A stretch of DNA of 63,584 nt, the filler included, from Candidatus Babelota bacterium (GTDB lineage Bacteria; JAGOBX01), in NCBI GenBank assembly GCA_017999075.1. It is 11 parts of 11 records of this genome, joined end to end, with 100 filler letters (N's around TTAATTAATTAA, not from the genome) between each part and the next. Parts side by side here need not be neighbours in the genome. Positions count along the whole stretch, not along the records: positions 52,302 to 57,893 come from JAGOBX010000268.1; 10 more parts are not named here. One strand, 5' to 3'. Below the pieces are notes generated by a model. The model worked only from the letters and a program-made list of their open reading frames with translations, did not search any database and was not told where the DNA came from. Within the stretch, counting starts at the first letter, position 1, and each line of letters opens with the position of its first letter. Shown here piece after piece: positions 29,253-57,993 of the stretch. A program made the position numbers and the translations under genes.

Positions 29253-29254
29253 TT

Positions 29255-33320: not shown

Positions 33321-33323
33321 TAC

Positions 33324-34942: not shown

Positions 34943-35042
34943 NNNNNNNNNNNNNNNNNNNNNNNNNNNNNNNNNNNNNNNNNNNNTTAATTAATTAANN
35001 NNNNNNNNNNNNNNNNNNNNNNNNNNNNNNNNNNNNNNNNNN
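34943..35042. other. Artificial contig spacer
   Basis: N44-TTAATTAATTAA-N44. Confidence 0.99.
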
Positions 35043-35468: not shown

Positions 35469-35542
35469 TTGCAGGTATTGTATTATATATTATATTCGTT
35501 TTTAAATTCAGGCTGGAAAATTATAAAAATAAAATTACAGAT

Positions 35543-35893
35543 TTAAATTATTTTTTTTTCGATGTCAGTTATACGTACTATTTCTGTAATCCGCACTCCG
35601 AATTTGTCGTCTATAATTACTACTTCTCCTTTAGCTATCAATTCTCCGTCAACATATATATCTACGGATTCGCCTGCCTGTTTATTCAATTCAATTACTT
35701 CGCTTATATCCAGTTCGAGTATTTCACGCAAAGTCATTTTTGTTTTTCCGAGTTCGACTACGATTTCTTTAGGCAAATCAACATACATGCTGATGTCCCT
35801 GTTAGAAAATTCCATAGTAGAATCACTAATTGGCGCGAATTCAACCGGGGTAACTAATTTTTTGTCATCTTCATTTTTGAGTATAGTTACCAT
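35543..35893 (-). CDS. fliN: Flagellar motor switch protein FliN
   Basis: VELGKTKM, VIEL.K.AGE.VDI, IAKGEVV..DDKFGVRITEI; GGAGG RBS. Confidence 0.92.
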   Translation of the reverse strand: MVTILKNEDDKKLVTPVEFAPISDSTMEFSNRDISMYVDLPKEIVVELGKTKMTLREILELDISEVIELNKQAGESVDIYVDGELIAKGEVVIIDDKFGVRITEIVRITDIEKKII

Positions 35894-35923
35894 AATTCCT
35901 CCAAACTTAAAAAATCTTTTTAT

Positions 35924-35952
35924 ATTTTAACTGAATAAAATTATTATGTCAA
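35924..35952 (-). promoter_or_regulatory. sigma70-type promoter for fliN
   Basis: Minus strand TTGACA-17 nt-TAAAAT between the uvrA stop and the fliN start. Confidence 0.65.
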
Positions 35953-35957
35953 GCAAA

Positions 35958-38801: not shown

Positions 38802-38804
38802 AGT

Positions 38805-40127: not shown

Positions 40128-40501
40128 TTAATGGTTTTTAAAATATCAGATACAGTTGATTTAAATATGGAAATATTTATGGGTTTTTCAAGCATTTGAA
40201 CTCCGAACTGCTGAATTTCCGAGAGTTCTTTTATATCTTCAATAAAATCTCCTGTTATTAAAATACATTTTATGTTTTTCTGGGCGCATTTTTTGATTAT
40301 GTCTACCCCTGTTAAATTACTGTTATCATAATGCAAATCTATTATTGCTAAACTTATTGAATTTAATTGTTCAAGAGCTTCTATTGCTGTCTCAGGATTT
40401 TTTGCCACTACATAATTTTTATCAAAATTTGATAGGGCATTAAGCATCATAGTTCTTGAATTAGGACAATCGTCGCTTAATAATATAAAATATTCTTTCA
40501 C
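40124..40501 (-). CDS. Single-domain response regulator receiver (CheY-like)
   Basis: GTG start with AAAGGAG RBS; DD, phospho-Asp in IIDL, ITG, EKP. Confidence 0.8.
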   Translation of the reverse strand: MKEYFILLSDDCPNSRTMMLNALSNFDKNYVVAKNPETAIEALEQLNSISLAIIDLHYDNSNLTGVDIIKKCAQKNIKCILITGDFIEDIKELSEIQQFGVQMLEKPINISIFKSTVSDILKTIK

Positions 40502-40536
40502 TGAAATTCTCCTTTGAGACAGTATATTATCTTTTT

Positions 40537-40565
40537 ATTATACAAAAAATAAATAAATACGTCAA
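40537..40565 (-). promoter_or_regulatory. sigma70-type promoter for the receiver-rarA-uvrA operon
   Basis: Minus strand TTGACG-17 nt-TATAAT. Confidence 0.65.
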
Positions 40566-40706
40566 GCATATTTTCCTTGTAATTTTTTTTACTTGTATTA
40601 AAATTAAGTTTTAATATAAATCATTTTTTTTTTTTTTTTTTAGGATTTAATTAAATTAATTTAATTTTATTTTTAAAACTGAATTTGGGAATATTAGGGA
40701 ATATTA

Positions 40707-40806
40707 NNNNNNNNNNNNNNNNNNNNNNNNNNNNNNNNNNNNNNNNNNNNTTAATTAATTAANNNNNNNNNNNNNNNNNNNNNNNNNNNNNNNNNNNNNN
40801 NNNNNN
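40707..40806. other. Artificial contig spacer
   Basis: N44-TTAATTAATTAA-N44. Confidence 0.99.
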
Positions 40807-40807
40807 G

Positions 40808-40957
40808 ATTGAAATGGGATTTGATTCATTAATGCTTGTGAATCTTATGAATAAATTATCGGAATGTTTCAGTATGGAAATGACAATTGCCGTGTTCTAT
40901 GAGTTTGAAACGGTAAATAAACTCACTGATTACTTTTTTATAAAACTAAATAAATGA
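40808..40957 (+). CDS. C-terminal PKS-type acyl carrier domain, 5'-truncated (not in ORF track)
   Basis: Reads IEMGFDSLMLVNLMNKLSECFSMEMTIAVFYEFETVNKLTDYFFIKLNK*; GxDSL phosphopantetheine motif and FYE..TV..L helix; its stop overlaps the next ATG (ATGA). Confidence 0.8.
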   Translation: MEMGFDSLMLVNLMNKLSECFSMEMTIAVFYEFETVNKLTDYFFIKLNK

Positions 40958-42120
40958 AAGAGGAATTTATGAAAAAAAAAGTTTGTATTTTAACTTCTAT
41001 GCTTTTATGTGAAGGTAATTCTTACCTCAGTTCGCGGTTATATAAATATTTTATAATGAATGATTACGAAATAGTATCTGAAGCTCCCGGAACAGAAGCA
41101 GTTATAGTAAATACCTGTATATTTGACGAAAAACGCGAAAAAGACGCTTTTGATTTAATTAATAATATTGTGAATAATGCAGAAAAAAATCAAAAAATAA
41201 TTATTATAGGCTGCCTTGCAAATATGGAAAAAAGATTGCCTTCAAGCGATAAATATATAAAGATAGGATTAGCTGAGGGAAATAAATTTGATGAGATATT
41301 TAAGCCTGCAATACCGTATAGTGATATTCTAATAGAAACTGTTAACCCGAAATATGCAAATACTGCATACGCATTGCTTGACCATTTTTATCTGAAACTT
41401 GGTTACGGATGCGCTAACAAATGCTCATACTGCATTATCCGCGTGGCAAAAGGAATGGTAAAAAGTGAACCAATCAAAAAAGTTCTTTCTGATTTTGAAA
41501 CTGGATTAAAAATGGGTCATAAAAAATTTATACTGCTTATTGACGATATTGGAAGTTATGGAATAGACATAGGAACTAATTTTGCCGAACTTTTAAATGA
41601 AATGCTTGCATATAAAGAATATAATTTTCAGTTATCAATGTATTATATTTTTCCGGGTCACTTTTTGAGGCTATTTGATAAAATAAATAAAGAAATATTT
41701 TTATATATGAGATTAATAAATATACCGCTTCAATCAACTTCTCAGCGCATATTGAAAATGATGAACAGAAATTACGATGTGAAAAAAGTGTTGGAATTAG
41801 TTGAAAAAATAAAAACATTTAATCCTTCAATAAAATTCAGAACTCATATAATGTATGGTTTTCCTACAGAAACCCGTGAAGAGTTTGAAAAATCATTTGA
41901 AATTTTGCCTGAATATTTTGATGAAAGTTATTTTTTTTGCTATTCAGATAAAGAAGGAACTGAATCAATTAATTATGATGGGAAAATAAGCAATGATGAA
42001 AAAATTTCAAGAACTCAATATGTATGTGACTATTTTAAGAAAAACAAGAAAATACTTTTGGGTTATTATTGGGCTGATACAAGTTATGAAGCATTGGCAA
42101 AAGTAATAGGAATAAAGTAG
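40954..42120 (+). CDS. MiaB/RimO-like (methylthiotransferase family) radical SAM protein lacking a TRAM domain
   Basis: UPF0004 cysteines (LCEGN, NTCIF, IGCLA), CANKCSYC, DIGSYG.D, IPLQS.S.RILK.MNR, GFPTETREEF. Alternative start at 40969. Confidence 0.85.
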   Translation: MKEEFMKKKVCILTSMLLCEGNSYLSSRLYKYFIMNDYEIVSEAPGTEAVIVNTCIFDEKREKDAFDLINNIVNNAEKNQKIIIIGCLANMEKRLPSSDKYIKIGLAEGNKFDEIFKPAIPYSDILIETVNPKYANTAYALLDHFYLKLGYGCANKCSYCIIRVAKGMVKSEPIKKVLSDFETGLKMGHKKFILLIDDIGSYGIDIGTNFAELLNEMLAYKEYNFQLSMYYIFPGHFLRLFDKINKEIFLYMRLINIPLQSTSQRILKMMNRNYDVKKVLELVEKIKTFNPSIKFRTHIMYGFPTETREEFEKSFEILPEYFDESYFFCYSDKEGTESINYDGKISNDEKISRTQYVCDYFKKNKKILLGYYWADTSYEALAKVIGIK

Positions 42121-42240
42121 TCAGAATATAATTTTTCTAAAAACGTTCTGATTAAATCAAAAAATACTGCTTAAAAATATTATATAATTTCAAAATAGTT
42201 TTCCTGAATAAATCAATAATATATTTTGGAAATTAAGAAT

Positions 42241-45200
42241 ATGAAAAAAGAAAGTTATATTAACGAAAAAAAAATTTATCCGTTGACATCAACGCAGATG
42301 GATATTTGGAATGATCAGAAATTATTTCCTGATCTGCCTAATTATATAATAGGAGGATATGGAATAGTAAATGGCAATTTCAATATTGATATATTTTCTA
42401 AAGCATTGAAAATTACAACCGATGAAAATGAAAGCCTGCGTTTGAAATTTACGGAAATAGAGAATATACCTTACCAATATGTCGAGGTAAATTGCGAACC
42501 TGATTTGAAAATTCTTGATTATACAAATTTTACGGAACCGGAAAAGCAAGCCATAGATTTTATAGAAAAAGAATTCTATGTTATTTTTGATTTGGTGAAT
42601 AATCTGCTTTTTAAGACATATATTATAAAACTGTCTGAAAATCGGAATATTATGTTTTACAAGTTTCATCATCTGATTAATGACGGTTTTGGAATAATGA
42701 AATTTTATTCTAAACTATCAGAAAACTATAATAAAATTTTGAAAAATGAAAAAATTGAAATTTCAAAAAATGAATATGTTTCTTTTATAAAAGAAAATCT
42801 TGAATATTTGCAGTCTGAAAAAATTAAAATTGACGCTGAATACTGGAATGAAAAATTTAAAATTCTTCCTGAACCTCTTTTTAAAGAAACAGCAGCTGAC
42901 AATACCCAGGAAAGCATTATAAAAACAATTAGATTGGAAAGGGAAAAATATGAACAATTAAACATTATTGCCCGGAATTCAAAAACAGGATTTTTTCATT
43001 TGTTTATTGGAATGCTTTGGCTTTATTTGTCACGTATATATCAGGAAGAAGATATTGTATTCAGTTTATCCTTATTGAACAGAGAAAAAAAACAGTATAA
43101 AGAAACGACAGGATTATTTACATCGGTTATTCCATTTAGACTTAAAGCAGACAGCAGTGAAAATTTTTTAACTTTAACGGGAAAAATAAGGGATGAAATT
43201 TTTACTGATTATAAATACCGCAATTATCCCTACAGCAGAATAAATAATATAATCAGTTCAAAAACCGGGAGAATGAACGATATATTTCAAGTTACGTTGT
43301 CATATGAAATCAGTAAAATGGATATTTTATTCGGTGACTGCAAAATTATTTATTTTCCTATGGCTAATAAATATGAAATGTTTGGATTGAATATTTATGT
43401 ACGCGAATATCAGAAGGAGGATAAGTTAAATAACGATATTATTATAGATATTGGCGGGAAAAAAAGTTTTTTTTCTGAATATGAATTGGAGAGAATTGCC
43501 GGAGATTTGAATAACTTAATAAATGAAATAATAAGTAATCCGGATAGAAAAATTAATGAATTCGAATTAATAAGCGCAACAGAAAAAGAAAAGATATTAT
43601 ATGAATTCAACGCAACTGATGCTGATTATCCGAAGGAAAAAACAATAGCTGAATTATTTGAAGAGCAGGTTGAGAAAACTCCGGATAATATAGCTGTAGT
43701 GTTTGAAAATAAAAAAATAACATACAGTGAATTAAATGAAAAGGCAAATGTTATTGCTCGTTATCTCGTGGGAACTGAAAAACTTAAAACTGAAGATATT
43801 GTAGCTTTGCATCTTGAGAGAAGCGAGTATATGATTATTGCTATACTCGGAATTTTTAAGGCTGGTTGTGCATATTTGCCTATTGATATAGATATGCCGG
43901 AAGAACGAATAAACTATATTTTAAATGACAGTAATGCAGTGTTAACATTTTCTGATACCGGAGAAAGTGAGTATTTGGACATTAGAAAAATCATTGGAAT
44001 CTGCGGAACAGGAAATTTGAATTTGAAAATATTTAATGATAATTTAGCTTATATTATATACACATCAGGTTCGACAGGCCAGCCTAAAGGCGTTATGATA
44101 GAACAGAAAGGTATGATAAATCATCTTTTTGCAAAAATAAATTCTCTGAAATTAACTTCAGACAGTATAGTCGCTGTTAATGCCGCATATCATTTTGATA
44201 TATCAGTTTGGCAGTTTCTGGCAAATCTGCTTGTCGGAGGACGAATAGTAATATATTCAAAAAATGTAATTTTAAATATTGAAAAATTTATAAATAAAAT
44301 AGTTGAAGATAAAATTTCGATTTTGGAGGTTGTTCCTGCATATCTGACTGAAATGCTTGTTTTTTTTAATGAAAAGCAAATTCAATTGAATTCACTTAAA
44401 TATCTTATTGTTACCGGAGAAAGTTTAAAACAGAATTTGGTAAAATTATGGTTTGAAAAATATCCGGAAATATTAATGGTTAATGCTTACGGGCCCACAG
44501 AAGCATCTGATGATATAACTCATTTTTTTATAGATAAATCTTTTAATATGGATCGTATACCTGTGGGAAAACCTGTTTCTAATTTAAAAATTTATATAGT
44601 TGATAAAAATATGAAATTATGTCCGGTTGGCGTTCAAGGTGAAATTGTAGTTTCAGGCGTTGGGGTAGGCCGAGGGTATATAAACAACAAGGAAAAGACT
44701 GAAGAAGTATTTATAAAAGATTGTATTTTGAGTGAAACAGGTAATCGTATGTATAAAACCGGAGATATAGGCAGGTGGCTTCCTGACGGTAATATTGAAT
44801 TTTTAGGGCGTATAGATGAACAAGAGAAAATACGAGGTTTCAGGATAGAACTTGGAGAAATAGAAACTGCGATTTCAAAACATCCTGCAATAAAAGAAAA
44901 TGTTGTTATAGCGAAAAAATTGAAAGGAGAAAACGAAAACAAGGAACTTATAGCGTATTACACTTTGAAAATTAACGGATTGGCTGATAATGAAAACTCC
45001 GATGATTCGGAAAATTTGCGAATTAGCAAATCAGAAAATTTTAAATTAGGAATTAGCGAGATTCGAGAATTTTTAGAAAAATTTCTTCCTGAGTATATGA
45101 TTCCGTCATATTTTGTAGAATTGGAAAGAATGCCGTTAAATCAGAATGGAAAGATAGATAAAAAAAAATTGCCGTTACTGTCAGAGGAAGATCTGGTTGC

Positions 45201-46463
45201 CGGCCGGAAATACAAAGAGCCGGAAACTCAAATTGAAAAAAAACTTGCTGAGATATGGAATGAAGTTTTAATGCTTACAAAAGTAAGCGTTTTAGATAAT
45301 TTTTTTGAACTGGGCGGACAAAGTATAAAAGCAATTCAGGTTGTATCGCGTATACAAAAAAGTATAAATGCTGGAATCGGGATTAAAGAAATATTTCAAT
45401 ATCCGACAATTAAAGAACTGGCAAATTGTATATCAAACAGTAAAAAAATTGAATTGTTTGATATAAAAAAAGTAGAAGAAAACGAATATTATGAATTGTC
45501 AAACGCTCAGCGCAGATTATGGGTATTGTCGCAGTTTGAAGAACAAAAGAACGCATATAATATGCCGGCAGTTCTTGAAATTGAAGGGAATTTAAATATT
45601 GAATGCTTCAGAAATTCTATTTTTGAAGTAATAGACAGGCACGAAATATTGCGTACAATATTTGTTATGATTAATGGAGAACCGAAACAAAAAATAATTG
45701 AAACCGACAAATTGAAAATTGAAAATTATTTTGAATATGAGGATATTTCAAAAACAGATAATTCGGAATCTATAATTCTCAATTGTCAATCTTCAATTCT
45801 TAATTATCAATTTGATTTAACAAAAGTCCCGATGATGAAAATAAAAATAATAAAAATTTGTGATTATAAATTTTTATTGTTTTTCAACATGCATCACATA
45901 ATATCAGACGGATGGTCAATGAATATTTTGATAAAAGATATTATGGAGATTTATAATTCTAAAATTGAAAAAAGAGAATCTGGTTTAACAAAATTAAATA
46001 TTCAGTATAAGGATTATGCTTATTGGCAGAATAAATTGTTGAAATCGGAAAAAATAAATTATGCTCGCGAGTACTGGTTGAAAAAATTATCAGGAGAAAT
46101 ACCTGCATTGGAATTGCCGTCGGATAAACCTCGGCCTGTTGTTCAAACATTCAATGGCGATATGATTGACGGATTTATAGAAAAAGAAATTACCGGAAAA
46201 ATAAACGAATTATGCAAGAAACAGAATGTAAGTTTATTTATGTTTTTAACAGCAGCGGTAAAAGTATTGCTGCATTTTTATACAGGCGCTGAAGACATAA
46301 TAATAGGTTCGCCGATTGCGGGGAGAATACATTCGGATTTAGAAAATCAAATCGGATTTTATGTTAATTCATTAGCGCTGCGAGATAATATAAAAAGCGA
46401 AATGACATTTGCAGAATTTTTGGATGCTGTCCGCAATACAGCTCTTGAAGCGTACCAAAATGA
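42241..46463 (+). CDS. Non-ribosomal peptide synthetase, C-A-PCP-C, 3'-truncated
   Basis: HHLINDG C domain; A domain YTSGSTGQPKG, YGPTE, YKTGD, KIRGFRIELGEIE, NGKIDK; PCP LGGQS; second C domain HHIISDGWS. Confidence 0.95.
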
Positions 46464-46563
46464 NNNNNNNNNNNNNNNNNNNNNNNNNNNNNNNNNNNNN
46501 NNNNNNNTTAATTAATTAANNNNNNNNNNNNNNNNNNNNNNNNNNNNNNNNNNNNNNNNNNNN
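46464..46563. other. Artificial contig spacer
   Basis: N44-TTAATTAATTAA-N44. Confidence 0.99.
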
Positions 46564-46706
46564 ACGAGACAGCCTTGAAGGCTGTGCAGAAATTCAGCTG
46601 TTTCTGATGCGTAACTGTTTTTATAAAAGAATAAAACCGTTAATATAAAAATATAAATTATACGGAAAAACGATTTTATATGAATGTTTTTTTTAAAATT
46701 ATTCAT
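46564..46706 (-). CDS. Partial exported protein (possibly a PorV/PorQ-like N-terminus)
   Basis: Signal peptide ending SYA, then SETAEFL; 8 bp downstream of the subtilisin; truncated. Confidence 0.3.
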
Positions 46707-46714
46707 AAATTATA

Positions 46715-48373
46715 TCACCAGTTTATAACTGTTAATTTTTCAGTCCATTTGCCGTAATCTGTTTTTGCGTAAAACATATACGTTCCGGGAGATACGGAAG
46801 AAGTATAAATAGAATCTCCGTACCACCTTGCGTCAAGAGAACCATCTCCATCAAAATCATTTATTTCCTGTGTTCCTGATAAAGTTTTAATCAATTGTCC
46901 AGATAAATTATATATTTTAATTTCGAGTGTTTTTGTTGAAGCTGCCGGTCTGAAAACAACATAATCCCATTGATTGATTTTTTTAAAAGGATTCGGAAAA
47001 TTAATTACAGCTCGTTTATCTTTATCTATTACAGGCCGGTTTAACTGAACCATTTTTAAAGCATTATAAGCGTTTAACCTTCCTTTGTTGGAACTTGCAG
47101 GATCATTCAAAACAGGATAATCAGCGCTTCTTATCAGAATATCTTTTATTTCCCATGGTTTAAGATTAGGATTATATGAAAATAATAAAGCAGCAACACC
47201 GCTGACAAAAGGAGCTGAAGCTGATGTTCCGTTCCAGTATTCTATTGAGCCGTTGGTTTTAGGAAAATATATGTTGGTTCCAGGAGCAAATATATTGACG
47301 TTATTCCAGCCGTAATTTGAAAAATCTGCCCGATTATCTGAAATATCTGATGCGCCTACAGAAATAACATTACTGAAATCCGATGGGTATATGTTTGAAT
47401 AATCATTATTACTGTTGTTGTTTCCTGCAGCTGCTATCAGAACAATATTTTGGGCATACGCATAATTGACAGCCTGTTCTTCAAGGGAATCTTTGTCGCT
47501 GCTTCCAAGACTCATATTTATAACTTTAGCTCCGATTTTTACTGCATAATAAATGCCTTCAACCAAAGTTGATGTTGTTCCTATAATTTGTCTGCCGTCG
47601 TCATCTGCACCAAGGCAGCGAACAGGCAATATTTTTCCGCCCCATATTACTCCTGCTCCGAAGGTGTCGTTATCAGTTTCAGCGCCAATAATCAATGAAC
47701 ACCATGTCCCGTGTCCATCAATATCAAACATATCCGGGAAGTTAGTATCAGACTGCCATTGACCATTTGTTTGAAATGCCCCTACAAAATTAAATCCATT
47801 ATAATCGTCGATATATCCGTTGTTGTCATCGTCGATTCCATTACCCGGTATTTCATAAGTATTTAAAAATGTTTTGTTTTTTAAATCAGGATGATTTGTA
47901 TCTATACCTGTATCAAGAACAGCAATGATAATATTGGAATATAATCCTGAATCTATTTCCCACGCATTATTTGCTTTGATTTTTCCCAACCCCCATTGTT
48001 TACCGTTTGCGGCAATATCGTAATCATCATCATTCGGATTTGGAATAACACATGATTTATAAACATAGTTTGGCTGAGATATAATTATTGTTGTGTCGGA
48101 CTTGAATATATTATAAAATTTATCAAATGAAGAAGAAGAGTCAAATTCAAATAATACGGTGTTGTTTGATAAAACTGATGTATTGATTATTCCGCCATAA
48201 GTCTTATATGCTTGTATTTTAGAGTCAATAATTTCAGAAACAACAAATTTTGCCAATAATTGATTTTCAGCTATTTCACCTAAACTCGAGTGTTTTATAG
48301 AACGAAATTTCGCAGCATATACCAATTGTCCGGTTATGAGAAAAAACAAAATAAATGCAGTAAATTTTTTCAT
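46715..48373 (-). CDS. Secreted S8 subtilisin-like protease with T9SS type A / FlgD-Ig-like C-terminal domain
   Basis: Triad VLDTG, GHGT, GTS.SAP.VSG; AAAGN; GNGIDDDNNGYIDD Ca loop; CTD NFPNPF..IKIYNLSGQLIKTL..W.G..PGTY..KLTVI. Confidence 0.92.
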   Translation of the reverse strand: MKKFTAFILFFLITGQLVYAAKFRSIKHSSLGEIAENQLLAKFVVSEIIDSKIQAYKTYGGIINTSVLSNNTVLFEFDSSSSFDKFYNIFKSDTTIIISQPNYVYKSCVIPNPNDDDYDIAANGKQWGLGKIKANNAWEIDSGLYSNIIIAVLDTGIDTNHPDLKNKTFLNTYEIPGNGIDDDNNGYIDDYNGFNFVGAFQTNGQWQSDTNFPDMFDIDGHGTWCSLIIGAETDNDTFGAGVIWGGKILPVRCLGADDDGRQIIGTTSTLVEGIYYAVKIGAKVINMSLGSSDKDSLEEQAVNYAYAQNIVLIAAAGNNNSNNDYSNIYPSDFSNVISVGASDISDNRADFSNYGWNNVNIFAPGTNIYFPKTNGSIEYWNGTSASAPFVSGVAALLFSYNPNLKPWEIKDILIRSADYPVLNDPASSNKGRLNAYNALKMVQLNRPVIDKDKRAVINFPNPFKKINQWDYVVFRPAASTKTLEIKIYNLSGQLIKTLSGTQEINDFDGDGSLDARWYGDSIYTSSVSPGTYMFYAKTDYGKWTEKLTVINW

Positions 48374-48471
48374 AAAATTATTTTTTAATAAAATTTAAAG
48401 TTATACTTATTTGACAATTTTAAATTAAAAAATGTCAATAAGCTAAAACAGTTAAATTGAAAAATATGCAG

Positions 48472-50586
48472 TTAAAAAGTTACAGTTCCTTCAAAAACAA
48501 TAAAATTTGTTTTTTCATAATATGATTCTGAACTTAAAACAGCGTCAATATCATAAAATGTGCTGTTTTTACTTTTTAGATATTCTTTGTATTTTTCGTT
48601 TAAACTGTTTGCAAAATAAATATCTTTGTCTTCGTCTTCTGAAAATAATCCTAAACCGTAAGAAAATTTAATATAAACATTGTCGGCAAAATTATATTTT
48701 ATTCCAATGTTTTTATTTGTAAAATCATCATTGCGGCTTGATCCGGTTGATAAAATATTTTCAATATCATATTTTTTATATCTGAGTCCTGTAAACGCAG
48801 ATAATTTTTTTGTGATTTTATAAGAAAATTGAGTTTTAAGTTCGTGCGTTGTAATATCGCCTGAAATAATGTTAGACGCTTTATAATCATTAAAATAATC
48901 ATTGAATTTTATAGTGAATTTATCAGAAGGAATAAAATTCAGATTTAAATGAAATCTTTGAATTTTAGATATGCCTTCCAGTTCATAATTTTTAAAGTTA
49001 TAATCGTCAAACATTGCATAATAACTAACCAAATTTTCATTATCCGGTTTTTGATATGAATAATCAAATCCGAGTTCGATTTTTTTATCAGGCATATATT
49101 TTAATTTATAATTTATTTCAAACCATTTTTTTGAAATATCAGTTGTATTTGAATAAATGCCGGTTACATTTCCTGGATTGAGAAGGGAAAATGAATTTGA
49201 AATATAAATATCTTTTGCTGAAATATCGCGGGATACAAGTTCAATTCCTGTTTTAAAAGCGGAAGAATTTTTTAAAATTATACCTAAAATTATTTTGTCT
49301 TCATCATAATATTCGCCGAGCAAACGCCGTAATCCGAGAGGAGTTGAAGCATTTCCGCCAATTGCATCATCATATCCGTCATTATAAACTATTGCGGCGC
49401 ATCTGCTTTGAGTTATCAGATATTGAAAATATAATTTGATGGAATCTGCTAAAGACAAATTACAATCAAGACCGAAATACTGTTTATAGTTTTTTCTGCC
49501 GGAATCAATTATTTGAAGAATATCATAATGATACCAGTCATCATTATAATTTCTGGGATGTTTTATCCAGCCGTCTGTGTCGTTTGAAATTATTTCCATA
49601 TTTGCTCCGTTGGGACTTCCGTAAATTCCGTCATCGTCCTGACTTCTTAATAAAGTTAATCCGAAATTGAATTTATCAAATTTAGAATTAATCCTGGAAC
49701 CGATTAAATCTTCATTTGAAGTTTGTTTGTCGCTATAAAAAAACATAGCATCGAATTTTTCGAATTCTTTGGCGAAATGTATTATACTGTAATCTCTGCC
49801 GAATTTGTGATATTTTGTTCGTTCATCATCAAAAAAATAAATTCCATTTTGAAAATTTTGAGAATAATTATCAAGAAGTTTTGATGGTTCTGCAAAATCA
49901 AGTATTCGTTCTCCCCGTCCTCCGAAAATATAAATATGTTCATTTTTAAATGTGATATGGCCTTCATCAACTTTTGATGAATTTTCCACCCATCCCTGAT
50001 TATAACCTGCCTGACGTTTTATATTGTTTGTTCTTAAAACATTTAATTGAAATACAGCTTGAACTTCCGAAGAAATGTTTAATAATACATTTAAATCAAT
50101 GTTATGAACAGGTTTCTCGTTTCTCCATCTGCTTTCTTTTTTGAACAGCTGTAAAAATTTATAGTCTCCGAAAATGAAAATTTTGTTTCCGAGATTAGTG
50201 TTTCCTCCGGGAAATTTGAATGCTTTTGCTACAGGAAGCTTCAATAAATTTTTTCCATCTTTTGAAATTACTGAAAAAGTCAGATTGCCTCCATCATCAG
50301 CCCCTATCCAGTTATCATCATCGAGAACAAATTTATATTCATAAGTTCCTTCGTTCAATTTTTGTCTTAATTCCCAAACTCCATCGGTATTTTTATTTAA
50401 AAAATTTACAGATTTATTCCAACCGTTGAAATTGCCTGCAATGCTTATTTTAGAAGCTTCATCTGATTTGAATTTAAAAACAACCATTTCATTATCCATA
50501 GACAATTCAACAGGCTCAGCATATAATATATTGGTTATTGCTAATAAAATTATTAAAACCAGAATATATTTTATTTTAAACATCAT
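48472..50586 (-). CDS. CBM48 (glycogen-binding) domain fused to a putative outer-membrane beta-barrel
   Basis: Signal peptide; IAGNFNGW, GVWEL..L.EGTYEYKFVLD..W; alternating aromatic beta strands; terminal FEGTVTF. Confidence 0.7.
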   Translation of the reverse strand: MMFKIKYILVLIILLAITNILYAEPVELSMDNEMVVFKFKSDEASKISIAGNFNGWNKSVNFLNKNTDGVWELRQKLNEGTYEYKFVLDDDNWIGADDGGNLTFSVISKDGKNLLKLPVAKAFKFPGGNTNLGNKIFIFGDYKFLQLFKKESRWRNEKPVHNIDLNVLLNISSEVQAVFQLNVLRTNNIKRQAGYNQGWVENSSKVDEGHITFKNEHIYIFGGRGERILDFAEPSKLLDNYSQNFQNGIYFFDDERTKYHKFGRDYSIIHFAKEFEKFDAMFFYSDKQTSNEDLIGSRINSKFDKFNFGLTLLRSQDDDGIYGSPNGANMEIISNDTDGWIKHPRNYNDDWYHYDILQIIDSGRKNYKQYFGLDCNLSLADSIKLYFQYLITQSRCAAIVYNDGYDDAIGGNASTPLGLRRLLGEYYDEDKIILGIILKNSSAFKTGIELVSRDISAKDIYISNSFSLLNPGNVTGIYSNTTDISKKWFEINYKLKYMPDKKIELGFDYSYQKPDNENLVSYYAMFDDYNFKNYELEGISKIQRFHLNLNFIPSDKFTIKFNDYFNDYKASNIISGDITTHELKTQFSYKITKKLSAFTGLRYKKYDIENILSTGSSRNDDFTNKNIGIKYNFADNVYIKFSYGLGLFSEDEDKDIYFANSLNEKYKEYLKSKNSTFYDIDAVLSSESYYEKTNFIVFEGTVTF

Positions 50587-50696
50587 ATTCCTCCAGACAT
50601 AATTTTGAGTGACTGCATTGTATTTTATATTATAAAATTCTCTATCATATTTTTTTATTATGAATTAACCTTACGAACCCGGATTTGAATTTTTAA

Positions 50697-52049
50697 TTAA
50701 AACCAGACTCCGAGTTTAAAAAAAACTTTATCTGAACTCGGATAATCTCCGTGCCATCCGGAATCGTATTCAACCAGCATTTCGGCATTATCGTGAATTT
50801 TATATTTTAACTGGGCAAAAATGTTTTCGCTTCTCCGTTTGATATAAGGCTGATAATTTATTGTGAACCTGTTAAAAGAAGTTAGTTTTTTTGTTAAGTT
50901 TATACTGTTTTCTAAAGACATTTCATTTTTTTTATATTGAGTTCCTATATCCTGAATTTTGTAATAAAATTTATACCACATATTTTCAAGGTCTCGTTCG
51001 AGCTGAATATAATAAGTCGGATAATGCACATTATTATTTAAAGCATCAATATAATAATTGTATGATGTTTTAAATTTATAACCGTGAATAAAATCAATGT
51101 AAATTTCAGAATAAGTTTCTGAGCTTTTTTTTGTATTTCCTGCATCTTCTTTATATGTGTTTTTTAAAACAAAAGTTACCGCTTTTTGGGGGAGATTATA
51201 ATATATTTCATTATAATAAGCCTGTTCGTCTCCAGTCTGTTCATATCCGCTGTTAGCAAGATAATTTCTGTAATTTTTACCGAAATTCCAGTACATTGAT
51301 TTATAACCGAGTTCGCCTAAATTATTTGATTTGAAACGGATCCATTGGAGTTCAGATTTGAAAGCAAGAGAATCGTCAGACTGACGTTGACCTGGGTCGC
51401 CGCTTTTTAAAAATTCATTTGAAAAAAATACATCTCCTATTTTCCATTGAGTAAAGATTCCGGTAAACCAGTTGTAATCGTTTGGATTATCCCCCCATCT
51501 TTTTTGTCCATAACTGAAATTATATTTTAATTTATATTTTTTAATTTCGTGACGTATAGTATAGAAATTGAAATCATCAGAGCCATTATCTTTCTGGTCA
51601 CCCAAAAAAATTGTTCCTGAAAAATTATTCGGCAGCCACCAGTCTGTTCTTAATCCCTGAATATCGTATCCGTTAGATACTATATTTATTATATGATCAG
51701 GCTGCCACAATCTGTCTTGATTATAATAATAAATGAGTTCCATTCCTCTGGCATCATTCTTGCCTGTTAACCGGTATTTAATGTTAGCTTCATTAAGGGA
51801 CATGTTAGCTGCAGGATTACTTCCGCCAGCGCCCAACTTGATAAATGTTTCAACATTTTTTACATTATCAGACCAGAATTTGAGTTCAAGATAATGATCC
51901 GGATCATTTACATCCCATCTATGACCAGAATTTTTATAAGTATTGTTTTGAAATTGATAATATAAATTTAAGTTGGTGGCAGGATATATATTATAATTTA
52001 ACGATAAAAATATTATCAGTCCAATAATAAATCGCAATTTATTTTTCAT
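50697..52049 (-). CDS. Putative outer-membrane beta-barrel protein
   Basis: Signal peptide; W/Y/F-rich amphipathic strands; C-terminal beta-signal KVFFKLGVWF. Confidence 0.65.
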   Translation of the reverse strand: MKNKLRFIIGLIIFLSLNYNIYPATNLNLYYQFQNNTYKNSGHRWDVNDPDHYLELKFWSDNVKNVETFIKLGAGGSNPAANMSLNEANIKYRLTGKNDARGMELIYYYNQDRLWQPDHIINIVSNGYDIQGLRTDWWLPNNFSGTIFLGDQKDNGSDDFNFYTIRHEIKKYKLKYNFSYGQKRWGDNPNDYNWFTGIFTQWKIGDVFFSNEFLKSGDPGQRQSDDSLAFKSELQWIRFKSNNLGELGYKSMYWNFGKNYRNYLANSGYEQTGDEQAYYNEIYYNLPQKAVTFVLKNTYKEDAGNTKKSSETYSEIYIDFIHGYKFKTSYNYYIDALNNNVHYPTYYIQLERDLENMWYKFYYKIQDIGTQYKKNEMSLENSINLTKKLTSFNRFTINYQPYIKRRSENIFAQLKYKIHDNAEMLVEYDSGWHGDYPSSDKVFFKLGVWF

Positions 52050-52201
52050 ATATTAAAATATAAAATTATAATGTCGAATTTACAAAAATTATATAAGTAA
52101 ATAAATAAATTGCAACTGATTTTTAGGTTTATTTATTGACAAATATAAAACTATGTTATATATAATTTGTAAACAAATATAGCGTGATGCTGTACAAATA
52201 A

Positions 52202-52301
52202 NNNNNNNNNNNNNNNNNNNNNNNNNNNNNNNNNNNNNNNNNNNNTTAATTAATTAANNNNNNNNNNNNNNNNNNNNNNNNNNNNNNNNNNNNNNNNNNN
52301 N
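52202..52301. other. Artificial contig spacer
   Basis: N44-TTAATTAATTAA-N44. Confidence 0.99.
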
Positions 52302-52304
52302 AAT

Positions 52305-52348
52305 AAAAAATATGAACCTGAATTTATTGAATCAGGTTCATATTTTTT
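52305..52348. terminator. Intrinsic terminator downstream of spoVG, probably bidirectional
   Basis: Perfect 17-bp inverted repeat AAAAAATATGAACCTGA / TCAGGTTCATATTTTTT with a 10-nt loop. Confidence 0.8.
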
Positions 52349-52372
52349 GAGGCCATCTTATTTTTAAATTTT

Positions 52373-52738
52373 TTAAAATGGAATTTCTTCGTCTGATTTG
52401 GAATCAGAATCAGAATTTTCAGGTTTTTCTTTTTTAGGTTTAGACGCTGCTTGACCTTCGGAAGCAGATTTTAAAGGTGTTTTTTCAAATTTTTCAAGTA
52501 TTAATTCGAAAAGTTTTGCTCTTCCGTCAGCTGTTATTGGATGAAAAATATCTTCCCACTGACCACCTTTAGTTGACCGGGACGGCATTGAAACCCATAA
52601 TCCTTTTTGCCCGTCCATTACTTTAAAACCTTTACATACGAAATGTCCGGCAATAACAATGTCTGCAAATGCTTTTACATTGTTCATATTTTCAACACGA
52701 TTAATTCTGACATCCGTAAACACTTCATTTAAATCCAT
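52373..52738 (-). CDS. spoVG: SpoVG-family nucleic-acid-binding protein with acidic C-terminal tail
   Basis: TDVRI, KAFA.I, KV.DG.KGL.VSMPSR, DIFHPI; start at ATG 52738 after a GAGGAG RBS; ends DEEIPF. Confidence 0.9.
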   Translation of the reverse strand: MDLNEVFTDVRINRVENMNNVKAFADIVIAGHFVCKGFKVMDGQKGLWVSMPSRSTKGGQWEDIFHPITADGRAKLFELILEKFEKTPLKSASEGQAASKPKKEKPENSDSDSKSDEEIPF

Positions 52739-52757
52739 AGTTTTTCTCCTCTTTAAC

Positions 52758-53216
52758 TTAACGCTTGATTTTATCAGCGCTTTCAAGTATTAGCGTAACA
52801 GGACCATCGTTAAATATACCTACTTCCATATACGCCTGAAACACGCCGTATTTTATAATAATATCATTTTTTGTCAAGCAGTAATTTTTCAATTTGTCGA
52901 AAAGTTTTTTTCCTGCAGAAATATCGGCAGCTTCTATAAAATCAGGCCTGTTTCCTCTCATGCAACTGCCGTATAAAGTGAATTGCGGAACTATCAGAAG
53001 CTCTCCTTTAACCTCTTTTAAAGACAGATTCATTTTTCCGGCGGAATCTTCGAAAATTCTGAGATTAACAATTTTTTCTATTGAATATTCAATATCTTTT
53101 ATAGAATCGTCTTTTCTGAATCCTGCAAGAACCAGCAAACCCTGTTTTATTTCATCAATTAAGGTGTCATTTATTTTAACATACGCTGATTTGACTCTCT
53201 GAATAATTGTTTTCAT
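52758..53216 (-). CDS. dtd: D-aminoacyl-tRNA deacylase
   Basis: IQRVK.A.V, LRIFED..GKMN.S, QFTL, NDGPVT. Confidence 0.95.
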   Translation of the reverse strand: MKTIIQRVKSAYVKINDTLIDEIKQGLLVLAGFRKDDSIKDIEYSIEKIVNLRIFEDSAGKMNLSLKEVKGELLIVPQFTLYGSCMRGNRPDFIEAADISAGKKLFDKLKNYCLTKNDIIIKYGVFQAYMEVGIFNDGPVTLILESADKIKR

Positions 53217-53226
53217 ATTTTTTTAA

Positions 53227-53712
53227 TTATTTAAAAATATAGTTTTTAGTGGTGAGTTCGAGCCGTCTGCTTAAAGTGCGTGATAAATTAAACAGAATTT
53301 TTATTGTAGTGGTTTTATTCTTTTTCAGCATAATGTTAAAATGGTGTTTACTTAAAAAATATGCTGTTGTAGGAATAATTGTTCGTACAGTGGCAGTACG
53401 TCTGATATTATCTATTAATGACATTTCTCCGAAATAATTAAGATCGCCGAGAGTTGTAATGATAAATTCTTTTCCTGCATCATTTTTTTTTAAAATATTA
53501 ACGCCGCCGGATTTAATTATATACATTCCGTCTGATTCATCGTTTTCGCTGAAAACAACAGAATCTTTATCAAAATTAATTTCGTTTATTTCAAGAGATA
53601 ACTCTTCAAGATCATGCAGAGACAAATTGTCAAACAATTGAACTTTACTTAAAGTTATGACAGTTTCATCATCTGTTGGTTTTACGCTTAAAAGTGTTTT
53701 GAAGAAATTCAT
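53227..53712 (-). CDS. Stand-alone cyclic-nucleotide-binding domain protein
   Basis: LF..LS, MYIIKSG.V, FGEMSLID..RTATV; no HTH. Confidence 0.85.
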   Translation of the reverse strand: MNFFKTLLSVKPTDDETVITLSKVQLFDNLSLHDLEELSLEINEINFDKDSVVFSENDESDGMYIIKSGGVNILKKNDAGKEFIITTLGDLNYFGEMSLIDNIRRTATVRTIIPTTAYFLSKHHFNIMLKKNKTTTIKILFNLSRTLSRRLELTTKNYIFK

Positions 53713-53724
53713 ATTGATTTCCCC

Positions 53725-54525
53725 TTATCTTTTTTTAATAATATTTTCATAAAATTTTTTATTATCAATTACAATTTCCGATTCAGGACTAAGCAGAACT
53801 AATGAAAAAAGATTTATTCTGTTAATAACGAATAATTGTTCATTGATGTATATATGATTTCCTATTTTATAAACTGATTTAATAATGAAATGCAGATAAA
53901 TGTTATAAAACACATCGCGGAAACCTATAACCATTATTATTGAAATTGATATTATACTGCATTTTGCTATGAAAATGGAACCATTTAAAAAAGTCTGTTC
54001 ATTAATTCCCAATAATGGTAGAGAATAAAAAATTATTCCGAATCCTCCTGAAACAAGAAACAACCATTCGGCCAATCTGTAATATTTAAAGTTTATAAGA
54101 GCAAGGCATATCCTGAATATTTTCGCGAAAAAGTTCAGAATATAATAATTTATGACTATAAATGCAGCAAAAGAAATTAATTGCGACAATAGTTTTATTA
54201 TTGACCATAAAATAAGGGAAATATCTTCAAACCCGAAATTATCAACTATAACGCATAAGGTTATTGTAATAATTATCCAGTAACAGATTTTTGCTATAAT
54301 ACGCGAGGGAACATCTGATATATGATTGGTTATCAATTCGAGAAAACCTATTTTTTCAGCAGCTGCATCAAATTTTGTGATTTTTAGAATTCCTGCGATA
54401 GATAGGTAGATTAGTTTTGCTATAATCAAACCTATAATCAGTATTAGTACTGAATCAACGTATATCGGCAATTCAGTATTGAATGAATACATAAGATTAT
54501 TTATGTTTAAAACAAGTTTATCCAT
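53725..54525 (-). CDS. CmpX/MscS-like membrane protein
   Basis: Repeated TM helices (ILIIGLIIAK, PSRIIAKICYW), FRD...N, Y.IG..I short cytoplasmic beta domain. Confidence 0.65.
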   Translation of the reverse strand: MDKLVLNINNLMYSFNTELPIYVDSVLILIIGLIIAKLIYLSIAGILKITKFDAAAEKIGFLELITNHISDVPSRIIAKICYWIIITITLCVIVDNFGFEDISLILWSIIKLLSQLISFAAFIVINYYILNFFAKIFRICLALINFKYYRLAEWLFLVSGGFGIIFYSLPLLGINEQTFLNGSIFIAKCSIISISIIMVIGFRDVFYNIYLHFIIKSVYKIGNHIYINEQLFVINRINLFSLVLLSPESEIVIDNKKFYENIIKKR

Positions 54526-54548
54526 GTAACATTTCCTCCGAAATTAAA

Positions 54549-55961
54549 TTATTTGTCAATTTCAATTTTATTTCCGTTAGAAGAAACCTCTATATCCCCG
54601 TCTTCATCAGTCCTATAAATATTTTTCATTATTTTTTTGAGACGTTTGTAAGTTGACGGATGGGGATGATGAAATTTATTGCCTGCTCCTACTTGAATTA
54701 TTCCGTATGATGGTTTGACTTTATCAAGAAATTTTTGGGATGAAGAAGTTTTGCTCCCGTGATGCCCTACTTTTAAAACATCAGAATTTAATGAATTTCC
54801 GAATTTTTTTACTAATTCTTCTTCGCAATCCTCTTCCAAATCTCCGGTAAACAGAAATACATTATTCTTATATTTCATTTGAATTACAATGGACGCATTG
54901 TTTATATTGTCGTAATATTTCCCTTTTGCAGGATGCAGTATTTTTACTGATATATCCTTATCCCATTTAAATTCATCATCGCGTTTTGGAGTTTCATAAC
55001 CAATATCGTTTTTTTTAATTTGTTTAAGTATTTCTTTATAAGTGCGGGTTGTAGAAGGATGACCCGAATCGAAAACTTTTATTACTTTAATTCTTTTAAA
55101 CAAGTTTAGAGTTCCTTCGATATGATCTTTGTGAGGATGCGTTAAAACAAGTGTATCAATTTTTTTTATTTTATTTTTTTCTAATATATCAGCTATTTTA
55201 TCACCGTCTTTAGGAGTTTTTCCTGTATCTATAACAAAACATTTTTTTGATGGAGTTATAATTATCTGCGCGTCGCCCTGACCAACGTCAACATAAATGA
55301 TTTTAATTTTTTTTCCTGTTTTTTCTCCTGAAACAGAACTTGTTTTTTTTGTTGTTCCGGAAGATTTTCCGAATATGTCTTGAGCGTCTTTGATTTCAAA
55401 ATCGTCTGAAACTTCAGATTGAGTTTTTATTGGTTCCTGTTCTGTTTCTTCCTGAGAAATATCATCTGAATCATCAGAATCAGTTTTCTGGACGGTTTCT
55501 GCGGTTGCGGCAGAAGTGCCTTGATTGTCTTGTTGAATGAACTGCTGATCAGGAATTTTTGGAGAAGAAGACGAACTTTCGGTTAATTTCTGAAACTGCG
55601 GTTTATAGTAAGAGGTATAATACTTAAATCCGGCAAATCCTATGATCAGTATAAAAACAGCTATTAATCCTGACAATATTATGTTTTTGCTTTTTGAAGG
55701 TTCTGCTATTTCAGGAGAAGAAGATTCTTTTCCGAACAATTCGAATGCAGTTAAGCTGATTGTAGAAATATCCTGCTCATCAACAGTATAAAAAAATATC
55801 TGAAAATCAAAAGAACCGGTCATTACCGGATAAACATCTGATGATTTAAACTGAGGAAGTTTTTCTTTTAATAACTGAATTTTTTTTTCAGATCCTTTGT
55901 ATAAAACCCGCGTTTTCCCGATTTTAATCTGAGGATCTATTATCCAACGTTTATTTTCCAT
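54549..55961 (-). CDS. Membrane-anchored ComEC/Rec2-type metallo-beta-lactamase-fold hydrolase
   Basis: DVGQGDA, IDTG, THPHKDH, NNAS.V, FTGD, KVGHHGS, HPH, YRTDEDG; single TM and acidic linker. Confidence 0.85.
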   Translation of the reverse strand: MENKRWIIDPQIKIGKTRVLYKGSEKKIQLLKEKLPQFKSSDVYPVMTGSFDFQIFFYTVDEQDISTISLTAFELFGKESSSPEIAEPSKSKNIILSGLIAVFILIIGFAGFKYYTSYYKPQFQKLTESSSSSPKIPDQQFIQQDNQGTSAATAETVQKTDSDDSDDISQEETEQEPIKTQSEVSDDFEIKDAQDIFGKSSGTTKKTSSVSGEKTGKKIKIIYVDVGQGDAQIIITPSKKCFVIDTGKTPKDGDKIADILEKNKIKKIDTLVLTHPHKDHIEGTLNLFKRIKVIKVFDSGHPSTTRTYKEILKQIKKNDIGYETPKRDDEFKWDKDISVKILHPAKGKYYDNINNASIVIQMKYKNNVFLFTGDLEEDCEEELVKKFGNSLNSDVLKVGHHGSKTSSSQKFLDKVKPSYGIIQVGAGNKFHHPHPSTYKRLKKIMKNIYRTDEDGDIEVSSNGNKIEIDK

Positions 55962-56025
55962 AAATTAAACAATATTATAATTATCAATTGAATAATTTCA
56001 AGATTTTTTATATAATAAATACAGC

Positions 56026-56887
56026 CATGAAAAATTTTGAACCTTTTGTAGATGTAATAATAACAACTTTTAACAGACCGGGCTTTTTAGAAGAGTCGAT
56101 TGAAAGCGTTGAAAATCAAACTTACGGAAATATAAATATCATAATTGTTGATGACGGTTCGGAAAAACAGATTAAATTATTTCCTTCTTTGAAAAAAAGA
56201 AAAAAAAATATATATTATATTTATCAGAATAATTCAGGTATAAGTTCTGCAAGGAATACAGGAATAAAGTTAAGCAAATCGAAATATATTGCGTTTCTTG
56301 ACGATGATGATTTATGGGTTAAAAATAAAGTTGAAAAGCAAATGAATATTTTACTGAATACAGAATACAGTGTTTGTTATACAAATGAGAAGTGGATGAG
56401 AAATGGAAAACATCTTAACCAGCACAAAAAACATCAGAAATATTCAGGAGATATTTTTGATAAAGTTTTAAGTTTATGCATAATAAGTCCGTCATCAATT
56501 CTTTTGGAAAAAAAAGTGTTTGACACAATTGGAATGTTTGACACTGACTTCGAGGTATGCGAGGATTATGAGTTATGGCTGCGCCTTGCACTGAAGTATA
56601 AAATATATTTTTTAGATGAACCTTTGATAATAAAACAGGGCGGTCACAATGATCAGTTATCCAGAAAACTGCCTGTTATGGACAGTTTCAGAATAGATGC
56701 TTTAAAAAAATTACTTGATAATTATAATTCTTCAATGGATTCATATAAAATAAAAATAGTGATTGCCGAACTTGAAAAAAAAAGTAGAATAATTATTAAT
56801 GGCTGTATAAAACGCGGGCTTAACGATGAAATTGAAAAATATGAACGAATTATTAAAAGTTGTAAGGCAAAATACGGATTATTGTAA
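56026..56887 (+). CDS. GT2 glycosyltransferase
   Basis: VIITTFNR, VDDGS, G.SSARN.G, FLDDDD.W, CEDYELWLR, K.GGH.DQLS (ORF track starts at 55988). Confidence 0.9.
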
Positions 56888-57779
56888 AAATTCCGGCGAC
56901 CATAAAATTTTATCAGGGAAATACAGTTTTTCTATTTTTGATGCTGAAAAATTCACGGAATATATAGAAATTACCGGATTTCCGGTAATTGAAAATAAGA
57001 ATGAATATATTCCGCTAATAGGTTTTAAAAATTATAATTTGAACGAAATCCGCATTTTCAGGATATTAAACAGTATTCTGACTCCTGAACATCATTTGTA
57101 TATGCTGAATTATGAATTTGAAAAATTCGGGCTTAAAAATCCTGTTATAACTGCTGAACTTATAAAATATTATAATTCTGAAGTAGGCAGTTCAGGATTA
57201 CACGAATATATGAAATTCAATAATATAAAACCTGTTAAAGAAAACCTTGAATTTTTTTTATGGCTTGCAGATGAAACCGAATATGTGAAAAAAATGCTGA
57301 TTGAAACAAATCTGTCAAAAGATATTATTGAACTGCTTAGAAATCTTAGCAGGGAAATACAGATTTTTTTATTGGAATTATTTGTGAAAATCAATTTATC
57401 TCTGAATGATAAAAAACATGCTGTAAATTATATTTTCGATTTAGTTCAGTCTGGCAAAACAGATATTGAAAAAATTATTAATGAAATAAATTGTTTGACA
57501 TTTGAAAAGCAGACCGCTCCAGTTAAAATACTGGATTATTTGAAAAAATTAAGATTTCCTGTTTTGTCAGGGTTAATCCTTGAAAAAGACGAAATTGTAA
57601 ATAAGCTGAATACCGGTAAAATAAAGTTTGAATACGATAAAACATTTGAATCTCCGGGAATTAGCTGCAAAATTAAATTAGAAAAATCGGAAGATACCGA
57701 AACAATAATTGAATATTTTCGTGAAAAAAAATTTTTGATAGAAAAATTTTTGGATGTAAATGAACAAAAATTATTTTGA
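56826..57779 (+). CDS. Hypothetical protein, possibly degenerate ParB-like
   Basis: Long ORF overlapping the GT2 end; P.I.....PLIGFK loosely recalls the ParB-N GxRR region; LKKLRFP C-terminal motif. Confidence 0.4.
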   Translation: MKLKNMNELLKVVRQNTDYCKNSGDHKILSGKYSFSIFDAEKFTEYIEITGFPVIENKNEYIPLIGFKNYNLNEIRIFRILNSILTPEHHLYMLNYEFEKFGLKNPVITAELIKYYNSEVGSSGLHEYMKFNNIKPVKENLEFFLWLADETEYVKKMLIETNLSKDIIELLRNLSREIQIFLLELFVKINLSLNDKKHAVNYIFDLVQSGKTDIEKIINEINCLTFEKQTAPVKILDYLKKLRFPVLSGLILEKDEIVNKLNTGKIKFEYDKTFESPGISCKIKLEKSEDTETIIEYFREKKFLIEKFLDVNEQKLF

Positions 57780-57893
57780 TGCACTGAAGTTATCTTTGAT
57801 TTACGGAACTGTTTCGCTGATATGGATTTTTGGTTCAAATGCAGTTGTATCTGAATTGATGAATCGATATCCGGGATTTATTTGGATATCTGC
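57760..57893 (+). CDS. N-terminal TM of a probable membrane sensor (kinase/GGDEF/HD-GYP type), truncated
   Basis: LSLIY...SLIWIFGS resembles the 'IxxxYxxxxxLWIxxSD' sensor start. Confidence 0.4.
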
Positions 57894-57993
57894 NNNNNNN
57901 NNNNNNNNNNNNNNNNNNNNNNNNNNNNNNNNNNNNNTTAATTAATTAANNNNNNNNNNNNNNNNNNNNNNNNNNNNNNNNNNNNNNNNNNNN
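57894..57993. other. Artificial contig spacer
   Basis: N44-TTAATTAATTAA-N44. Confidence 0.99.

Follow-up and report, generated by a model that had tools for sequence, protein, structure and literature searches.

The acidic tip of SSB, the bacterial protein that binds single-stranded DNA, serves as an address label that guides replication, restart and repair enzymes to single-stranded DNA, and it has been studied almost only on SSBs with an OB fold. Published work gives the E. coli tip as DDDIPF (PMC5872125) and describes a large set of partner proteins recruited through it (PMC10018359, PMC10164576, PMC3152348). The locus considered here, from an uncultured wastewater bacterium whose genome is 87% complete, encodes a protein of the SpoVG family (P0001) that ends in DEEIPF after a low-complexity linker. 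This raises the question of whether a protein built on a different fold may have been drawn into the SSB partner network through its C-terminus and, if so, whether it would stand in for SSB or work alongside it.

The Tailed SpoVG Gene and Its Expression Signals

The DNA analyzed (the window, 63,584 nucleotides in its entirety) consists of 11 MAG contigs joined by ten spacers (5770..57993), each made up of 44 N, TTAATTAATTAA and 44 N. The contig carrying the gene spans window positions 52302..57893 (5592 bases) and ends 72 bases from the gene, so that the genes to the left of it in the window are not its neighbors. Two large ORFs at 48472..50586 and 50697..52049 are located on another contig. 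The features of the locus are as follows.

52373..52738, minus strand: tailed SpoVG paralog (protein P0001); translation gives 121 aa plus stop
52481..52717, minus strand: SpoVG domain, residues 8-86 (PF04026 match, PDB sequence matches, Foldseek, pLDDT)
52394..52480, minus strand: disordered low-complexity linker, residues 87-115 (pLDDT and low identity)
52376..52393, minus strand: SSB-Ct-type tip DEEIPF, residues 116-121 (tip alignment, likeness to the genome's own SSB)
52745..52752, minus strand: Shine-Dalgarno sequence AGAGGAGA, placed 7 nt ahead of the ATG and within the 19-nt gap between dtd and the gene (direct reading)
52758..53216, minus strand: dtd (D-aminoacyl-tRNA deacylase), the conserved upstream neighbor (PF02580 at 1.9e-50)
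52850..52877, minus strand: promoter-like TTGACA-16-TAAAAT (11/12), located within dtd and some 110 nt upstream of the ATG (consensus scan)
52305..52348, minus strand: terminator-like hairpin 3' of the stop codon, with a 17-bp stem and a 10-nt loop, its U-run cut by the contig end

Translated on the minus strand, the ORF runs from an ATG at 52738 to a stop codon at 52373-52375, and its product ends in ...SKSDEEIPF. An extended ORF of 137 aa with a TTG start overlaps dtd; the ATG agrees with the N-termini of the homologs. The original prediction had credited the gene with a strong ribosome-binding site and a terminator of its own. The first can be read directly from the DNA, where the context is AAGAGGAGAAAAACT-ATG, and the second was recovered by folding, with a hairpin of -20.5 kcal/mol (z = -6.75) that none of 200 shuffles equaled. 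A consensus scan for terminators found none, missing this hairpin because its loop is 10 nt long. The promoter-like site is weak evidence, since the scan that found it returned 6 sites against 3.7 expected in shuffles. The listing of sequencing runs gave six DNA runs from three studies (wastewater, activated sludge and anaerobic digester) and no RNA run.

A SpoVG Fold Followed by a Disordered Tail

By profile and by fold, P0001 is a member of the SpoVG family. It matches Pfam SpoVG (PF04026) with 87.8 bits against a cut-off of 29.6 (5.5e-25), residues 8-86 aligning to profile positions 4-82 of 82, and its PDB sequence matches are 2ia9, 2i9z and 2i9x (E 6e-15 to 2e-13), with 33-38% identity to the solved SpoVG structures. 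An AlphaFold2 model built on 23 relatives scores a pLDDT of about 90 across residues 1-90, and the value drops under 50 across residues 91-116. The best 10 Foldseek matches of this model in the PDB are all SpoVG (2I9X, 2IA9, 2I9Z), with rmsd of 1.4-2.2 A over 80-82 columns and TM-scores of 0.72-0.87, normalized by target length. SpoVG is the sole Pfam family matched and Foldseek returned only SpoVG, with neither PF00436 nor an OB fold among the hits; since the OB-fold core was looked for and is absent, P0001 falls outside the SSB family. The layout first read from the gene, in which the core ends at LEKFEK and is followed by about 30 low-complexity residues and DEEIPF, holds up closely, as the PF04026 match covers residues 8-86 and is followed by 29 residues and then the tip.

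The fold also bears on the probable ligand. In published work, SpoVG cannot bind DNA without a basic doublet (R53-R54 in Borrelia and K50-R51 in S. aureus; Jutras et al., PMC3688583). The SpoVG of Borrelia has its highest affinity for RNA, binds ssDNA too, and has an affinity for dsDNA that is lower by a factor of more than 100 (PMC11086051), and canonical SpoVG prefers RNA (PMC4959528). In P0001 the doublet site reads R then S (PSR-STKG), and 19 of the 23 tailed relatives have R or K at the first position, whereas the second is mostly non-basic, with a K found two to three residues further on. By analogy with canonical SpoVG, the ligand of P0001 is probably of the same kind, single-stranded RNA or DNA, and it may be RNA because the published SpoVG proteins prefer RNA to ssDNA.

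Conservation of the C-Terminal Tip

Scoring the C-termini of SpoVG homologs, a check that followed from the original prediction, separates the tip clearly from the linker that precedes it. Among 23 aligned relatives, mean pairwise identity is 67% over the last five residues, 52% over the fold and 13% over the linker, and the tails range from 22 to 49 aa in length. All 23 sequences close with an unvarying P and F; position -3 is one of [ILVM] in 22, position -4 is acidic in 21, and the net charge of the tail is negative in 22. The tip is kept in orthologs down to 33% identity. A word-indexed search gave the same picture, with [DE][DE][IM]PF ending 10 of 11 homologs although their linkers cannot be aligned; the single tipless protein is 41% identical and comes from a contig of 548 bases. 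These alignments indicate that the tip of the tailed SpoVG is under selection as a short linear motif.

SpoVG was taken at the outset to lack such a tip as a rule, and this agrees with the canonical background: among the matches listed, which are mostly from Bacillota, none of 80 canonical SpoVG ORFs (loci L004-L083) has a PF end, and the canonical copy of this genome is itself untailed. At E <= 1e-3, exhaustive searching brought the family to 2944 members, and among the best 150 representatives of these 2944 a PF end is present in 12 and has the acidic-[ILV]PF form in 10. A narrower alignment search gave 18 loci, 17 of which had a SpoVG ORF that could be scored and two the tip (at 84% and 55% identity); it used two patterns specific to the sub-branch of P0001, which tailed forms elsewhere would escape. 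In this genome, PF ends occur on 16 of 6007 ORFs of at least 60 aa, and at least four acidic residues just before the PF end are found only in SSB and in P0001.

The third most acidic of all PF-ended ORFs in the genome encodes a radical-SAM protein of 425 aa (L229:159-1436, minus strand, G000 contig C475), which contains a helix-hairpin-helix motif and ends in ...EDYMDMLPF.

SSB and Untailed SpoVG in the Same and Related Genomes

One PF00436 SSB is encoded in the genome. It has 144 aa, lies in the order rpsF-ssb-rpsR on a contig other than that of the tailed SpoVG gene, and ends in EEDSIPF. The genome also holds two SpoVG genes, the second being an untailed canonical copy of 88 aa directly after ispE. 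The same trio of tipped SSB, canonical SpoVG and tailed SpoVG is present in one genome of the same genus and in one of the same family. In these three genomes the SSBs end in EEDSIPF, DDDEIPF and EEEDIPF, and the SpoVG tails in SDEEIPF, TDEEIPF and PEDEIPF.

Because the genome has both an SSB that is intact and a canonical SpoVG that is untailed, the tailed SpoVG is an extra paralog and not a replacement. Whether the genome's own ssb exists and keeps its tail was among the checks named with the early suggestion of an 'alternative or auxiliary SSB'. The intact, tipped ssb, found here and likewise in both of the relatives with a tailed SpoVG, favors an auxiliary or parallel hub and disfavors the other half of that suggestion; replacement of a lost SSB was accordingly rejected, as ssb is intact in rpsF-ssb-rpsR with the tip EEDSIPF.

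Beyond the family, a genome of the same class has two SpoVG genes, both untailed, and the tailed form was found in none of 37 more distant genomes searched. The same-class genome (L233, G003 contig C9) also carries a second SSB of 133 aa, which ends in ...DLDNEVD without a PF tip and stands beside a normal SSB ending in DDEVPF. In the same-genus genome there is a third SpoVG-like match with one in-frame TAA (G001:C216:1009-1293).

Chromosomal Neighborhood

Upstream of the tailed SpoVG gene, on the same strand, lie dtd, a gene for a cNMP-binding protein, a 266-aa ORF (a membrane protein without a Pfam match) and a gene for a metallo-beta-lactamase-fold protein. The order dtd-tailed SpoVG is repeated at L115, L117, L085 and L086, and in relatives with longer contigs the gene order is held at 84% and 55% SpoVG identity. 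Downstream, the relatives have a triad composed of a 75-77-aa ORF, a carbamoyltransferase (597 aa) and a DUF5989 protein (L115:8650-11104; L116:1371-3742), in which the short ORF has a weak SxtJ-like match (E = 0.0022) that is below the cut-off. The corresponding region is missing from the window, where the contig ends first.

The neighborhood is thus chromosomal, stable and housekeeping. A prophage location was rejected, given housekeeping neighbors that are syntenic across the family, and no phage, replication or repair genes were found around the chromosomal tailed SpoVG, either on its contig or on the longer contigs of the relatives. These neighbors give no link to replication or repair, which counts against reading the protein as an SSB-like hub.

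Phage Relatives

Scanning viral contigs yielded 125 relatives. Of the 80 that were kept, 8 end in PF, 57 have poly-acidic tails and 18 have neither. Most of the poly-acidic tails belong to one phi29-like phage family with genomes of about 18-19 kb, in which the SpoVG gene adjoins the DNA polymerase gene, and three copies in this family (L129, L141, L144) end in DDLPF and not in its usual acidic end. Members of the family (L123-L198, e.g., L144:4947-5297) also have collar and connector genes and an 851-aa DNA polymerase.

Placement in replication or recombination modules, which is absent for the gene of P0001, was seen in four viral records whose SpoVG proteins are 30-43% identical to P0001. 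In L196 an Erf-like gene is followed, after an HNH gene and others, by the tailed SpoVG, a regulator and a DnaD-like loader. In L188 the Erf-like gene overlaps the tailed SpoVG, and NinB, an initiator and a primase-helicase come next. The tailed SpoVG of L193 precedes a replisome organizer, a primase and a helicase, while that of L120 (43% identical to P0001) follows a DnaB-like helicase and an 87-aa ORF. In temperate phages the SSB gene is usually found between the annealing protein (Erf, RecT or Sak) and the replication loader. Some phage SSBs, for example T7 gp2.5 and T4 gp32, are known to end in an acidic tail.

PF00436 was found in none of five viral records with a tailed SpoVG, two of them rated 100% complete. 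In these two complete phages, ORFs of at least 70 aa were scanned against PHROGs, and no PHROG annotated as SSB was matched among the 55 ORFs of one (E <= 1e-6) or the 56 ORFs of the other (E <= 1e-10). The tailed phage SpoVG itself is placed by PHROGs in phrog_27338, annotated as 'unknown function'. A tblastn search of 50,697 cultured-phage records gave 20 records with P0001 and 15 with a phi29-like copy, in which no tail was covered and none was annotated. The observations support the conclusion that the PF-tipped phage SpoVG occupies the position of SSB in phages without a recognizable OB-fold SSB. Published reports state that phage annealing proteins depend on the C-terminal tail of SSB (10.1101/2020.04.14.041095; PMC13490951) and are stimulated by their cognate SSB (PMC5928155).

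Descent of the Tailed Form

A tree of the SpoVG domain alone (94 rows, 83 columns, quick method) placed the canonical SpoVGs, including those of the lineage itself, in a 53-row group (SH-aLRT 91) with P0001 outside it. P0001 falls in an entirely tailed group of 18 rows (SH-aLRT 80) together with the phage-borne P0028, while most viral tailed or acidic forms make up a group of 11 rows (SH-aLRT 85). An AU test that joined the 18-row tailed group to the canonical copies of the lineage, as a lineage-specific duplication would have it, did not reject this arrangement (p = 0.13). The source of the tailed gene may be acquisition from a phage or local duplication. The tip was gained or lost at least five times on this tree, and its function may for that reason differ between branches.

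Putative Partners of the Tip

PriA and RecO are encoded in this genome, and the RQC domain of RecQ was not found in it at 87% completeness. We modeled RecO together with tail residues 85-121, using a 10-row alignment; a search for RecO homologs gave only three proteins. The complex scored 0.53 (0.53, 0.38 and 0.58 in separate runs), against 0.00 for the best of three controls, with contact agreement of at least 38% and a partner pLDDT of at least 43 across the runs. Of 157 solved complexes, 116 pass the mark for this score, as do 2 of 215 mismatched pairs; at scores of 0.60 or lower, where the RecO prediction falls, only 18 of the 157 pass, together with both of those mismatches. Since a crystal structure of E. 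coli RecO with the SSB tip already exists (PMC3152348), the score may reflect the predictor's memory of that complex. The predicted complex shows at most a likeness to that solved structure, and it is weak evidence.

A further ORF of 255 aa lies directly upstream of recO in this genome (L201:722-1489, G000 contig C419); it has no Pfam match and ends in ...NDMPF. Its counterpart in the same-genus genome ends in ...CDMPF, and the ortholog in the same-family genome (247 aa) lacks a PF end. This ORF may be another tip-bearing protein, adjacent to one of the known readers of the SSB tip, though its tip is conserved only within the genus.

Proposed Role and Competing Explanations

P0001 shares its fold and family with canonical SpoVG (PF04026; 2IA9, 2I9X and 2I9Z; Bacillus, Staphylococcus, Listeria and Borrelia). 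It differs in its disordered tail of 35 residues with an SSB-type tip, which is missing at 80 of 80 canonical loci, and in the second residue of the basic doublet, which is mostly lost in P0001 and its tailed relatives. With bacterial SSB (PF00436) it has in common a layout in three parts, namely a core for nucleic-acid binding, a disordered linker that is comparable in length and not conserved, and an [ILV]PF tip, acidic and nearly identical to the SSB tip of the same genome. The core is an OB fold in SSB and a SpoVG fold in P0001, and ssb stands in rpsF-ssb-rpsR while the gene of P0001 stands elsewhere. The phage relatives share with phage SSB genes the slot between annealing protein and loader, as well as acidic or IPF/LPF tails; they differ in fold from phage SSBs, and the gene of P0001 is chromosomal with no phage genes around it.

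Taken together, we propose that P0001 would be a protein with a SpoVG fold that binds single-stranded nucleic acid and joins the SSB partner network by means of its SSB-type tip, a reading to which we assign a probability of roughly 0.55. Points against it are the chromosomal neighborhood, the half-kept basic doublet, the RNA preference of published SpoVG proteins, the weakness of the RecO prediction, the missing RQC domain, the at least five changes of the tip on the tree, and phage evidence that comes from relatives of 30-43% identity and not from this gene. The SpoVG fold would have acquired two further functional parts of SSB, namely a linker that is flexible and an acidic tip that closes with I-P-F and its free carboxylate. 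The core would bind single-stranded RNA or DNA, as published work on canonical SpoVG suggests; the tip, judging by its motif identity and conservation, would enter the pockets for the SSB tip on partners such as PriA and RecO; and the partner enzymes would thereby be brought to the nucleic acid bound by the core. In phages, the tailed SpoVG seems to act as the phage's own SSB-like protein beside an annealing protein and a replication loader, and in this bacterium it would be an auxiliary hub alongside the intact SSB and the untailed SpoVG, and no substitute.

The first of the other explanations draws on the RNA preference of canonical SpoVG (PMC11086051 and PMC4959528). P0001 might be a post-transcriptional or transcriptional regulator of the SpoVG type whose tip docks outside the SSB network, for example on an RNA-processing or translation factor, the likeness to SSB being convergent. 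The conserved upstream neighbor dtd, a translation-quality gene, and a chromosomal context without DNA-metabolism genes fit such a role. However, the tip is more than acidic, as it has the exact terminal [DE][DE][ILV]PF-COOH form that it shares with the SSBs of the same genomes, and the phage copies are found in DNA replication and recombination modules and not among regulators. On balance, we consider a regulator of this kind unlikely.

The coexistence of P0001 with an intact SSB bearing the same kind of tip implies that both would address the same pockets, and the tail could then act as a decoy that competes with SSB for its partners, thereby tuning or blocking the pathways of repair and restart, the SpoVG domain serving only regulation or stability. 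The strong ribosome-binding site would permit a high copy number. A pure decoy would nevertheless have no need of the kept fold and the conserved core (52% mean identity), and phages that lack SSB and carry the tailed protein beside Erf are better matched by a working hub than by a blocker, which makes a decoy quite improbable in our view.

It is also conceivable that the tail, being acidic, turns against the basic nucleic-acid-binding face of the SpoVG domain in the same protein, where it would inhibit the protein itself or mimic nucleic acid, with partner recruitment being secondary. The SSB tip is known to act in this way on its own OB fold. The negative net charge of the tails in 22 of 23 relatives would suit this, and the 57 of 80 viral relatives that are purely poly-acidic without a PF end show that in some branches selection acts on acidity by itself. 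By contrast, the tail is not docked on the core in the model, with pLDDT below 50 for residues 91-116, and a charge mimic has no need of an invariant terminal P-F. As the primary function of the tail this seems to us very unlikely, although it is compatible with recruitment of SSB partners, and the two mechanisms can coexist. The description of SpoVG as a septation protein had suggested a link to the C-terminal peptide of FtsZ, which was dropped because 23 of 23 tails end exactly in P-F, and the FtsZ peptide motif is not known to lie at the extreme C-terminus. Finally, that the tail is a chance or annotation artifact, added without meaning when an ordinary SpoVG gene is read through, has in its favor the low complexity of the linker alone and is refuted by the conservation of the tip to 33% identity and the canonical background of 0/80 PF ends, with conserved synteny and the hairpin after the stop codon also against it.

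Significance

In the openly accessible papers searched, no description was found of a SpoVG with an SSB tail or of a phage SpoVG serving as SSB. Extending the SSB-partner reading of P0001 beyond this protein, we tentatively suggest, with less confidence than for P0001 itself, that a SpoVG fold with an SSB linker and tip may constitute a second structural class of SSB-like hubs without an OB fold. Such proteins may be the only SSB of some phages, where they would act with Erf-type annealing proteins and the restart enzymes of the host. In the wastewater lineage they may have become a fixed chromosomal parallel hub, bringing PriA, RecO and others to ssRNA or to RNA-DNA structures outside ordinary SSB coverage.

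Pairing of annealing proteins with SSBs restricts the portability of recombineering, according to the literature, and a tailed phage SpoVG beside Erf would enlarge the toolbox. If the proposed role of P0001 is true, the occurrence of the same tip on a different fold, kept while the linker before it changes, would mean that the SSB partner network can be aimed at other substrates, and SpoVG, a family whose cellular role is debated, would in one branch or more be tied concretely to genome maintenance.
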